DNA from: Escherichia phage ECp13
Strand: one strand, 5' to 3'
Length of the DNA stretch: 64,000 nt
Sequence record: PP274704.1
The notes beneath the pieces were generated by a model, which saw only the letters and a program-made list of their open reading frames with translations, made no database searches and had not been told where the DNA came from. Every line of letters begins with the position of its first letter. Position 1 is the first letter of the stretch. The translations under genes and the position numbers were made by a program. This document shows, piece after piece, positions 55,251-59,373 of this stretch.

Positions 55251-56030
55251 TTATACTCTTGAACCATATATTGCTCCAACATTCTGCCATGTTGGAGCTG
55301 ATCCTGCTACAGCAGCACCAGGATTTGTCGGAGGTGTTGAATAACCAGAACCTGGATTAGCATATTGACCAGGTTGACCAACTTCACCACCGCCACCTGC
55401 ATAATACCCTGTACCAGTATTACCGCCAGCACCCGGAGACGTCAAACTAGCATTACCACCAGGCCATCGAGCACCATTATTTCCGCCTAAGCCGAATGGA
55501 CGACCGCCACCGCCGCCACAAACATATTTTCCCGCCCAGTTGTTGGCTTGTGAATAACCACCGCCGCCACCGCCGCCACCGGCAATAGCTCCGCCATTAT
55601 TAATTCGCAGACGTCCACCTATATCATTCTGGATACATACACCGCCATCAGATGCTCCAATTGCACCAGCGGCCCAACCATTCCCACCACGACCATACAT
55701 CGTTACGCCGTGTATGTTCAGTTGAACGTATTCATTAGGTGTATCTCCGTACATGAAGAATAAAGGAACATCTCTAGAATATGATACTAAATCTCCAGTA
55801 ATATTAAACACTATAGGTGCACTACCTGCCTCAAAACATCTATCTCGGAACCATTGACCATTGAAGTTATGGTCTGCTCCAAGTGTATGAATTACTTCAA
55901 CAGATCTACCTATCATATTACTCATCCAAAATGGAGCACCCATTCTTAATCGTTGGGCCGCGCCACCCATCCAATTTTGTCCTGTATTAACTACTGCAGA
56001 CGATCCTACCCACGGTCCTGTTACTGCCAT
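55251..56030 (-). CDS. 38: long tail fibre tip adhesin gp38 (T2-type, glycine-rich motifs)
   Basis: 259 aa from ATG 56030 (SD GGAGG); poly-Gly tracts GGGGGGGG and GGGGG between variable segments. Confidence 0.85.
55504..55579 (-). repeat. GGN-codon direct repeats encoding poly-Gly in gp38
   Basis: 16-mer CCGCCACCGCCGCCAC at 55504-55519 and 55564-55579 (plus-strand text). Confidence 0.8.
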
Positions 56031-56042
56031 ATAAACCTCCAA

Positions 56043-56056
56043 GGGGCCGAAGCCCC
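56043..56056 (-). other. GGGGC-UUCG-GCCCC hairpin between genes 37 and 38
   Basis: perfect 5-bp GC stem with UUCG loop on minus strand, directly upstream of gp38 SD; no T tract. Confidence 0.5.
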
Positions 56057-56061
56057 TCTTA

Positions 56062-59000
56062 TTATTTTAACAATGATTTAACTAATGCTTTAAGTTCTTC
56101 GATTTCTGATTTAAGTTCTGCAATTTCTGCGGTATGCTCATTGATTGCAGCTGTATTTAAACCAATTACACCGTTATAGTTCAAACGAAGTAAAGCTTCA
56201 CCATCAGGGTCACCTTCAACTAATTCTGGTAAAATAGCTTGAACTTCTTGAGCAATTAAACCGGCGTTAGGTTCCCATTTCTGATTACCTTCCTCATCCA
56301 GGCCTCGCTTCTGCATATAAGTGTAACCGTTAATTTTAGAAAGCTTCTGAGAAGCATTTTCAAATTTAACGAGGTCTTTTTTAACGCGAATATCAGAACG
56401 GACATAAACATCACGGACAAACGTTGAATATGCATCACTCTGTTGGATTAAATGACCAAAAGAAATAATAGCTCTTCCTTGCTCAGTCCACAAAGCACCA
56501 GTAGTATCCCAAAGACCTTCATGGAGATGATAAGCAGATGACCATGAAGCAATATGAACACCATTGGCAACCATATTGATTCGGCCATCACCGCCATGGA
56601 CTAAACCAGTATCATTATCACCAATAACAAGACATGGCCCAGTCCACACCGGGTCACCACCGCCAGCTGATAATCTTGCTCCAGTTTGAACCATGTTAGG
56701 AACAAACAGAGTTCCATTATAGTGGAATTCATATACAGCTTGCGGGTCAGAACCATTTTCCTGGTTACCTACACGAATAATACCTTGCGCCCAGTTATTA
56801 GTAGTGCGTCGCATACCAAAATCTACGCCGGAAAAATATCCTTCGTTAGTAATACCAGATTTTCCTTTAATAATAGGATAATAGCAGTCATTGCTGACGG
56901 ATCCAAAATCTACAAATATCGGAGCTTCTAAACCCCATTGGTCACCAAAGGCGCCAGATTTATGCGCAACCCATTGTGTACCGTTTATATGAAGGCGGTC
57001 TCTATTAAAATTAAATGTTCCTTGACCTTGAGGAGAAAGCGATATTTCGCCGTTATTTGTTATGTATACACCGCCTTGTGTAATGTAACTATAAAAACCT
57101 AGACCATTATCGCCGCCGCCTTTGCCTATATACCAGTTACCTGTACCACCTACATCACTACGGATGTGCGATGAAGCACCCGCACCTGCAGTTAAAATAA
57201 GGGCATCATTTCCAGCAGATAAAGTCAACTTACCGGTCATCGTATCGCCTTCTTTAGAAACACGAGTAGCTATTGCATCACGAATATTTGTAGTGTCTCC
57301 TGCTGAAGTAAACGATTTCCAAATATCAGACCAGATATTACCATTTCGAGCAATAGTAGCTTCACCACCGCCAACCTGAACATTATCAGGGAAATTAACT
57401 GTACCGTCAGCATTAAATCTTGATGTATGGCCTTGTGAACCATCTTCTTTTAAATGATGTAAAACAAATGTACCTGAATTAATTTCAGTACCTAAAGACC
57501 AAACAGCTTTACCGTTTAAAAACTTCTGTTTAACAATAGGATAATATTTACTTATAGCATCATCATCAATTTCCTGGAAAACAGGAGCTGCTTGAACATA
57601 CTGAATATCATAACCACCCGCGCCTGCTCCATGACCGCCAAATCTGATATACCCGTTTGCAGGGAATCCGGCATAGCTCAAATCTAGGTCAGGAATAACG
57701 ACCTTACCTGTATCTAAAGACATACTAAATGGACGAAGTGGACCGATATCGCCATTTTTGCCTTCACCATAGGCAGTTGGAATAATATGAAGACTGTTTT
57801 CTGAACGACGGAAAATGGCACCATAATCTGCGTTCCAAATGCGAAGCGCATTCACCGCTCCAGATGAAATTTCACCTGTTGTGTGAACTCCTCTATTTCC
57901 AGCAGTAACACCAGATGATTCAAATGAACCGTTAACGTTCATTTCTACTTCACCGGTAGTAAGTCTTTGAATATAGCTCATCCAACTAGTTGCATCAGAA
58001 ATTTCCATGACATTTTTACGATTACCTACACTAGGATTAGTAAACGTGTTACCCCATACGGAAATTGTCATATTATCAACTGAACTACTACCAGTTGTGT
58101 TACCTCTAAACATCAATGTAGAAGAATTATTTCTACCATCGATATTAACAGAACCACCAATAACATCAATATTACCAGGAGTAACTAATAATCCTCCAGC
58201 GGTATTAATATTAGTTGTTCCTCTTCCACGAAAATAATGATGATATCTACCGCCTTGATAATATCCCAAAAGAGTCTGACCATCTCCAAACGCGTTATTA
58301 TCATGATATGTAACAACAGTAGCGAGAGCATAATTTTCAGTAGGAGGAGTAGTTAAATCGGTTCCGTTAGTAGAATATCCAGCTACAAATTTTCTTAGGC
58401 TAGTTGTTTCGCTAGGGCTAAATAAAAATGTTTTCGTTCCATTATTGACGCTGAAATAATATCCATCCTGGTGCCATTTAAATCCAGTATCATTATCTCC
58501 TAAAGCAATACTAGATGGTCCTAGTATTGAATAATCTTTATTGCCAGGTGTTAAACCGATAGAAATTGAGTGACTCGATTTAATTCCGCCGCTCCATGTA
58601 AATGACCAAAGATAAGCGTCTAGCCCATCTCCGCTGTACCAAGTTATTCCATCATTATCTTTAACTTCATGGAAAATGCCAGAACCGACTGCATTACGCA
58701 TGACACGGAGATGATTAATAGCAGTAGTGCTTTCAGACAGTGGAACATTATCTGCCATCGAATAAATGTCATAATCACCTGTAGATTTATTATTAGTAAT
58801 GACTTTGTTGGTCAAAATCTGAGGAGTTGACATAGATTTCCATGCTGATACTTCAGGTGAAGTAAATAGGCCATTGCCTGAAAATGCATAAGTGCTTTCG
58901 CTACCAGCGGCGTAGTCTTGAACCCTGATATTAAGTACTTGTGTAGTTAATCCATCATTAGCCGGTGAATAAATGATTCCGCGTTCGCGGCTATTGCTAT

Positions 59001-59373
59001 CGAAAAAACGAACATGCGCTGTACCTGAACTTTTTGTAATAAGTTCCCCACCTTCAGTCATAATCTGCCCGGCGGCAATAATATCGCGAGTTACTCGAGC
59101 AATACCAATTAAATTAAAATTACCTGTCTGAGTGAAGGTGCCATTTAAAGTATAATCACCAGTTTGATTATAGTTTCCTATATGAATAACATTCCCGTCA
59201 ATGCTACCGCCTTTAGCAAAACCCAGATCAATAATATTTCCTTGGTCATCTTTAGTAAAAAGTACACGGTCTTTTAAGTTTATAGCCAATTCACCTTCGG
59301 CTAATACTGAAGCGGCAGGACGTGCTCCTGCGGTTTTGCTTCTTTTAAATTGTATTTGTTTTAAAGTAGCCAT
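56062..59373 (-). CDS. 37: long tail fibre distal subunit gp37 with C-terminal intramolecular-chaperone-like domain
   Basis: 1103 aa; N-terminus matches recalled T4 gp37; C-terminal coiled-coil tail ...[23 protein letters not shown]. Confidence 0.9.

Follow-up and report, generated by a model that had tools for sequence, protein, structure and literature searches.

In phage S16, the last 113 residues of gp37 form an intramolecular chaperone. Autocleavage at DLNVS^SDRRIKK (^ marks the cut) removes it and thereby exposes the face on which gp38 docks (PMC7917993). Three tryptophans, corresponding to W7, W20 and W35 of the gp38 described below, dock S16 gp38 onto gp37 (PMC6851490). The gp37 proteins of T2 and T6 are also cleaved, according to literature from 1986. 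For phage PP01, residues 41-259 of gp38, the receptor-binding domain, are available in PDB 9V85 as a fusion with superfolder green fluorescent protein (sfGFP); the domain consists of a beta-helix and a polyglycine-II (PGII) sandwich with five receptor loops, A-E (PMC12892980). Here we describe genes 37 and 38 of Escherichia phage ECp13 (PP274704.1), found at positions 55251-59373 of an analysed stretch of 64,000 nucleotides (nt), the window. The region belongs to a Tequatrovirus with a T2-type tip and forms the distal end of the late operon for the long tail fibre (36-37-38-t).

We read the locus, with a probability of about 93%, as an ordinary T2-type tip, in which a self-cleaving gp37 folded with the help of an S74 chaperone carries a gp38 adhesin docked by tryptophans and binding OmpC. 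The gene identities, the domain content, the near-identity to characterised proteins and the conservation of the cleavage motif and the docking residues are read from the sequence itself, whereas gp37 cleavage, gp38 docking and the OmpC receptor are the probable consequences, by homology with the systems above. The relatives compared were T2, T6, S16, PP01, AR1, pSs-1 and KNP5.

The longest open reading frame (ORF) for gp38 spans 55251-56042 and would encode 263 amino acids (aa) from a TTG four codons upstream of an ATG. The ATG at 56030, with GGAGG 7 nt upstream, gives a protein of 259 aa; gene 38 of KNP5, pSs-1, AR1 and PP01 is annotated from the same start. The product matched PF05268 GP38 (E=3.6e-72) and PF21721 Gp38_N (E=1.8e-21), both far above the gathering scores, and T2 gp38 falls in the same two Pfam families. 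In BLASTP comparisons it is 99.6% identical to gp38 of Shigella phage pSs-1, 98.5% to that of KNP5, 98.1% to that of AR1 and 96.1% to that of PP01; T6 (59.7%) and T2 (48.5%) align with it over the full length. The whole protein also matches S16 gp38 (PDB 6F45_D, E=6.6e-53), and residues 37-259 are identical to PDB 9V85 at 222 of 223 positions. The best BLASTP match to T4 gp38 had an E value of only 17 over 26 residues, and no Pfam family matches the T4 protein. The earlier note on this DNA, made from the sequence alone, had taken gp38 for the long adhesin with polyglycine motifs between variable loops and not for the short T4 assembly chaperone, and these matches bear it out. A scan of gp37 and gp38 against NCBIfam returned no families.

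An IMG/VR scan for gp38 relatives yielded 16 loci, 11 of them full-length; the panel used for breakpoints and slippage is small and holds 18 sequences. All 18 have tryptophan in the columns of W7, W20 and W35. The alignment also showed that GRGGNG, Gly8, GGGGGRPFG and further glycine-rich motifs are conserved, and that the segments between them vary. Three glycine runs separate the variable loops of this gp38, namely Gly8 (residues 151-158), Gly5 (172-176) and Gly4 (212-215). The Gly8 run is the equivalent of S16 helix 3, 151-GGGGGGGG-158 (PMC6851490). Since gp38 is located at the fibre tip in S16 and T2, it probably has the same position in the virion here.

The gp37 ORF encodes 1103 aa, the length given in the earlier note. 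In BLASTP it is 97.2% identical to gp37 of KNP5, 95.3% to that of pSs-1 and 92.5% to that of AR1, and its N-terminal 640-680 residues are ~34% identical to gp37 of T4 and T2. A profile search placed Pfam Peptidase_S74 (PF13884, "chaperone of endosialidase") at residues 993-1052 with E=2.2e-12 and a score of 47.5 bits (cutoff 22); the match extends over model positions 1-57 of 58. Residues 914-1103 match S16 gp37 (PDB 6F45_A, E=1.2e-42). A chaperone-like C-terminus had been proposed beforehand, and the Peptidase_S74 signature supports it. The same domain ends the gp37 proteins of T2 and T6, which fits the earlier remark that T2 gp37 is processed at its C-terminus; in T4 gp37 its place is taken by Collar and Phage_fiber domains.

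Autoproteolysis between R992 and S993, releasing 111 aa, is predicted because the sequence DVYVR^SDIRVKK aligns with the S16 cleavage site. The Pfam match begins exactly at S993, and Ser993 and Lys998 (S993-D-I-R-V-K998) could form a catalytic dyad; the Ser1264/Lys1269 pair of T5 pb1 has the same S-x4-K spacing (PMC4690869). The extreme C-terminus shows hydrophobic residues at 3-4 spacing, read directly from the sequence (I1084, L1087, I1091, L1094, V1098 and L1101), and an amphipathic helix presumed to form a trimeric coiled coil. In T5 pb1 the end of the chaperone is a triple-helical coiled coil (PMC4690869). The earlier description of a coiled-coil-rich end was overstated, as the helix comprises about four heptads at the very end. 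A further Pfam domain, Gp34_trimer, was found at gp37 residues 450-550 (window 57724-58026; E=4.5e-8, with a match to PDB 4UXE at E=4e-12). It is also present in gp37 of T2, T4 and T6, and indicates that modules are common to the proximal and distal half-fibres.

From these data a working model of the tip can be proposed. Gp37 would be produced as a 1103-aa precursor whose C-terminal 111 residues, the Peptidase_S74 chaperone, nucleate trimerisation of the beta-helical fibre. The chaperone would then cut itself off at R992^S993 by means of the Ser993/Lys998 dyad, and the cut would expose a flat trimeric end formed by the DVYVR strands, the docking face for gp38. One gp38 monomer would dock to this end via W7, W20 and W35 and display five hypervariable loops (A-E) on a polyglycine-II sandwich of glycine-rich motifs. 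These loops would bind the receptor, which for an allele of the PP01/AR1/pSs-1/HY01 type is OmpC.

The gp38 allele is probably of this OmpC-binding type. Its loops A-D are identical to those of PP01, and over residues 37-259 the sole difference from the 9V85 construct is S228 in place of A228 at the tip of loop-E (codon 55347-55349). In the PP01 gp38-OmpC model, loop-E enters the cleft between loops 5 and 7 of OmpC(O157), where A228 contacts the hydrophobic cleft. PP01 tolerates A228V and A228L but no longer infects with A228D or when A228 is deleted, and residues 158-170 are essential for its adsorption (PMC12892980). The C-terminal 68 aa of gp38, S228 included, are identical in HY01, PEC04, pSs-1, Sfk20 and Ec_YwIITB1. 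The recorded isolation hosts are E. coli O157:H7 for PEC04, E. coli MG1687 for Ec_YwIITB1 and Shigella for pSs-1 and Sfk20. A228S was considered as a simple marker of a switch to Shigella and rejected in that role, as the allele carriers come from both E. coli O157:H7 and Shigella.

The earlier note had also reported a 16-mer duplicated within polyglycine tracts made of GGN codons. CCGCCACCGCCGCCAC does occur exactly at 55504-55519 and 55564-55579, and at no other site of the window even with one mismatch. On the coding strand it reads GT GGC GGC GGT GGC GG. The copies lie 60 nt (20 codons) apart and in frame, bracketing receptor loop-B; one is inside the Gly8 run and the other spans Cys171 and the Gly5 run. 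No match arose when the window was shuffled by dinucleotides, a null that ignores the protein. Resampling the glycine wobble positions of the two runs with tract-specific codon usage left them with a common stretch of 16 nt or more in 5.8% of trials. Within the runs of the 18 gp38 genes, glycine is encoded by GGT (52%) and GGC (42%), with 6% for GGA and GGG together; outside the runs GGA and GGG account for 30%. As a side observation, alternating GGT/GGC runs avoid long G homopolymers, which would favour frameshifts, yet create 3n-periodic repeats.

The longest stretch shared by the first two glycine runs is 8-19 nt across these 18 genes. Among the window, pSs-1, KNP5, AR1 and PP01, the exact pair is found only in the window and PP01. 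It is broken by synonymous wobble changes in the other three of the four close relatives, so that the 16-mer pair lacks nucleotide-level conservation; the 16 nt shared in AR1 are different ones. The lengths of the Gly8, Gly5 and Gly4 runs are the same in all five phages, and no repeat-number polymorphism was seen among them. In the panel the Gly5 run is invariant (18/18) and the first run has 5-9 glycines, varying only between distant lineages. The duplicated 16-mer is therefore real but incidental, being largely explained as a by-product of two polyglycine helices encoded with alternating GGT and GGC.

Relatives provide examples of rearrangement near such tracts. Yersinia phage vB_YepM_ZN18 (locus L012; MN716856.1 / NC_054945.1) has a gp38 of 277 aa because its gene 38 contains a perfect 51-nt tandem duplication (2.3 copies, 100% identity, L012:1062-1178). 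The repeat unit is a loop-B segment plus Gly5, YYSPFSQMRLTFGGGGG x2, and the duplication is bounded by the Gly-codon 15-mer TGGCGGTGGCGGCGG, found in both flanking glycine tracts. Among 404 records matching the gene, only the two accessions of ZN18 have it. Its closest relatives (96-97.6% identity) give alignments split into two pieces, which span 783 nt in place of 834. The duplication is just what unequal exchange between Gly-codon repeats would produce; it is either such a product, now fixed, or an assembly artefact.

Mosaic junctions were mapped by three-way informative-site analysis of the gp38 genes. L008 switches from window-type to T6-type sequence between gene 38 nt 336 and 348, and L012 and L016 do so between nt 342 and 354-361. 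These three junctions each overlap GRGGNG, the first glycine-rich motif (GRM1, nt 337-354 or 343-360; homologous window position ~55677-55694). L010 switches ~25-30 nt upstream of it, and no junction mapped to the Gly8 or Gly5 tracts. Junctions between PP01-type and T6-type sequence inside GRM1 mean that the whole specificity domain is exchanged as one block. Recombination at a conserved glycine-rich motif is thus visible in the gp38 family, and glycine-rich motifs were proposed as recombination hotspots by Tétart et al. 1998, as that work is cited in PMC12032242 and PMC3157838.

A stronger reading makes the 16-mer pair itself a functional device selected for variation (a contingency locus, a slippage locus or a dedicated recombination hotspot), by which loop-B is often remodelled and receptor specificity is switched. 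The exact in-frame copies around loop-B, the ZN18 duplication between 15-nt repeats, the junctions in GRM1 and the hotspot proposal as cited in PMC12032242 would all suit such a device. However, we consider it improbable. The exact pair is lost by synonymous changes in three close relatives, sharing of at least 16 nt is expected with a chance of ~0.06 once two glycine runs are given, the run lengths are constant, a single phage carries the duplication, and the documented junctions avoid the two tracts that hold the copies. Deletion between the copies would also drop loop-B, essential in PP01, and in T6 no deletion of a single hypervariable segment (HVS) or glycine-rich motif was recovered (PMC3157838). 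The earlier proposal of a slippage or recombination site therefore stands in kind, given ZN18 and GRM1, but not for this particular pair, which is not conserved in pSs-1, KNP5 or AR1 and lies in runs whose length is constant among close relatives; nothing marks it as a dedicated device. Such Gly-codon repeats can undergo rare in-frame unequal exchange. That the GGT/GGC repeats beside loop-B serve as substrates for rare in-frame unequal crossing-over and yield loop-B copy-number variants is a speculative idea, which we rate somewhat higher than the device but still doubtful. If it were true, crossing-over in this phage would gain or lose a 60-nt unit, and loop-B copy-number variants, as apparently fixed in ZN18, would broaden or shift host range. 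This would make them the gp38 counterpart of His-box duplications. In T4, His-box duplications expand the host range of gp37.

Two other readings concern the tip as a whole. The C-terminal domain of gp37 might be kept in the mature fibre as an uncleaved structural coiled-coil cap, and some auto-chaperone domains, for example the fin of the P22 tailspike, do stay attached (PMC4690869). Against this, the scissile serine is conserved together with the lysine at +5 and marks the exact start of the Pfam domain, the homologous S16 domain is autocleaved to expose the gp38 docking face, and gp37 of T2 and T6 is cleaved, so that a retained cap seems very unlikely. A T4-type arrangement, in which gp38 is a mere assembly chaperone absent from the virion and the gp37 C-terminus binds the receptor, is hardly credible. 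It shares with this locus only the name and position of gene 38, after gene 37 and before t. Gp38 has no BLASTP similarity to its T4 namesake, which has no Pfam family, and is nearly identical to a crystallised receptor-binding domain, while gp37 carries Peptidase_S74 in place of the T4 Collar and Phage_fiber tip domains. Such an arrangement can be regarded as already refuted by the sequence.

The T2-type tip with self-cleaving gp37 and OmpC-binding gp38 remains the reading we favour. No finding contradicts it, and some points call for caution. An AlphaFold2 (AF2) single-sequence model of residues 993-1103 is too poor to confirm independently the alpha/beta chaperone fold with its beta-hairpin "tentacle" (mean predicted local distance difference test score, pLDDT, 64.7). 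It is all-helical except for two isolated strand residues, is untrustworthy at this score, and is confident only in the last helix (pLDDT ~90); the chaperone assignment therefore rests on the profile match and the homology to 6F45. The receptor affinity could be slightly different from that of PP01, because S228 replaces the cleft-contacting A228. Finally, a comparison of gp37 with KNP5 and pSs-1 in a 150-nt sliding window showed that the gp37 tip upstream of the cut is only 74-76% identical to pSs-1 in nucleotides, though gp38 is pSs-1-like. Identity to KNP5 is 99-100% at 56001-57500 and 76% at 58528-58827, where identity to pSs-1 reaches 100%. T-even fibre genes are typically patchworks of this sort. 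The exact gp37-gp38 pairing is a new mosaic, since the gp37 tip diverges from pSs-1 while gp38 is closest to it, and the compatibility of the two proteins is assumed from the conserved DVYVR strand and tryptophan residues.

The coordinates of the locus are collected in Table 1. ORF calls and Pfam matches give the gene order g34-g35-g36-g37-g38-t on the minus strand, with t directly after gene 38, an order shared with T2, T4 and T6. The product of gene 36 is 99.5% identical to that of KNP5 and of pSs-1 (BLASTP). The motif upstream of gene 36 is one of only three exact matches to TATAAATA within the window, and is presumably the late promoter of this gene, as its placement is that of T4 late transcription. 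A scan for sigma-70 promoters was at background (18 found and 19.1 expected), as is to be expected because late genes use TATAAATA. The hairpin in the 37-38 spacer (-17.8 kcal/mol, z=-2.95) lies just upstream of the gp38 Shine-Dalgarno sequence GGAGG, and in the relative G4507 a "terminator" is annotated at this hairpin. A second GC-rich hairpin with a UUCG tetraloop, at 60076-60097 on the minus strand, follows gene 35 and is itself followed by a T-run; the presumed TATAAATA late promoter of gene 36 comes directly after it.

Table 1 Features of the long-tail-fibre region, in window coordinates.
Feature	Position	Strand	Basis or remark
g34	61225-63978	minus	
g35	60101-61216	minus	
T4-type late promoter motif TATAAATA	60062-60069	minus	upstream of gene 36
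Gene 36, small distal fibre subunit, same late operon	59382-60038	minus	Pfam Phage_T4_gp36
Gene 37, long tail fibre distal subunit precursor, 1103 aa + stop	56062-59373	minus	ORF
Predicted mature gp37, residues 1-992, ending DVYVR	56398-59373	minus	alignment to S16
gp37 tip interval of low pSs-1 identity, residues ~875-975	56451-56750		
Predicted intramolecular chaperone domain (Peptidase_S74), residues 993-1103, 111 aa	56065-56397	minus	Pfam + S16 homology
C-terminal amphipathic helix, ~residues 1072-1103, presumed trimeric coiled coil	56065-56160	minus	heptad spacing, AF2
GC-rich hairpin with UUCG tetraloop, 37-38 intergenic spacer	56042-56057	minus	sequence + fold
Gene 38, T2-type tail-fibre tip adhesin, 259 aa + stop	55251-56030	minus	Pfam GP38 + Gp38_N
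gp38 N-terminal attachment domain, residues 1-40, docking W7, W20, W35	55911-56030	minus	Pfam Gp38_N
Gly8 run, residues 151-158, long polyglycine-II helix	55557-55580	minus	holds 16-mer copy 55564-55579
Receptor loop-B, Q161-V170	55521-55550	minus	between the two 16-mer copies; sequence identical to PP01
Gly5 run, residues 172-176, of invariant GGGGGRPFG motif	55503-55517	minus	overlaps 16-mer copy 55504-55519
Receptor loop-E, N225-S231, main OmpC-contacting loop	55338-55358	minus	PMC12892980
PP01 loop-A W119-I124, loop-C N184-W189, loop-D N204-Y209			PMC12892980
Gene t (holin)	54564-55220	minus	Pfam Phage_holin_T, E=4e-117

A megablast search with the 4.1-kb span of genes 37 and 38 matched 636 phage records, 118 of which cover at least 80% of the span. 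The best match is Shigella phage KNP5 at 96.3% nucleotide identity. Where the matched records are annotated, they name a long tail fibre distal subunit and a host-specificity or receptor-recognition protein. For a separate 24.5-kb stretch of the window, no record of the phage collection exceeds 97.6% identity, and the collection has no identical record; this points to an isolate-level variant that is new relative to the collection.

The observation of the earlier note is confirmed and its interpretation holds in essence, but none of it is new; published work covers the T2-type tip, the processing of gp37, the PGII sandwich, the layout of glycine-rich motifs and hypervariable segments, and recombination at the former. 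What the annotation adds is the name of the most probable receptor, OmpC of the O157 or Shigella type, and a set of residues for host-range engineering. The loop-B duplication of ZN18, a clear case from nature of a duplication between Gly-codon repeats, and the three junctions mapped to ~20 nt inside GRM1 are of modest value, as they illustrate the published model and do not extend it.

Of the described systems, T4 has gene names and positions in common with this locus, as well as the N-terminal ~640 aa of gp37 (34.5% identity); its gp38 is unrelated, and its gp37 ends in a Collar/His-box needle tip without an S74 domain. The S74 chaperones of endosialidase and T5 pb1 are recognised here in the full-model PF13884 match, the serine with a lysine at +5 and the terminal heptad helix, placed on a T-even fibre shaft and not on a tailspike or siphovirus fibre. 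The classical Henning/Krisch system of T2 and T6 shares the Pfam families of gp37 and gp38, the gene order and the layout of glycine-rich motifs and hypervariable segments. Processing of gp37 is established there, whereas here the cleavage is predicted from sequence. T2 and T6 differ in their gp38 (48.5% and 59.7% identical), which has other loops, and in the length of gp37 (1341 and 994 aa), of which only the ends can be aligned. T2 and T6 also use other receptors, OmpF/FadL and Tsx.

The S16 gp37(3)-gp38 complex (PDB 6F45; Dunne et al. 2018) has the same gp37 beta-helix with a terminal chaperone domain, autocleaved in S16, and likewise a gp38 monomer docked by three tryptophans, with a beta-helix, a PGII sandwich and Gly8 at 151-158. 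At ~45% identity its loop sequences are different, and it has a serine before the scissile serine (DLNVS^S) where the present gp37 has an arginine (DVYVR^S). PP01, AR1, pSs-1 and HY01 have the most similar tip, one of the OmpC-binding type, with gp38 proteins 96-99.6% identical (222/223 over the crystallised receptor-binding domain) and gp37 proteins of the same length class (1102-1109 aa) that are 87-97% identical. PP01 has A228 at the tip of loop-E instead of S228, and relative to the whole group the gp37 described here is a new mosaic of KNP5-like and pSs-1-like stretches.

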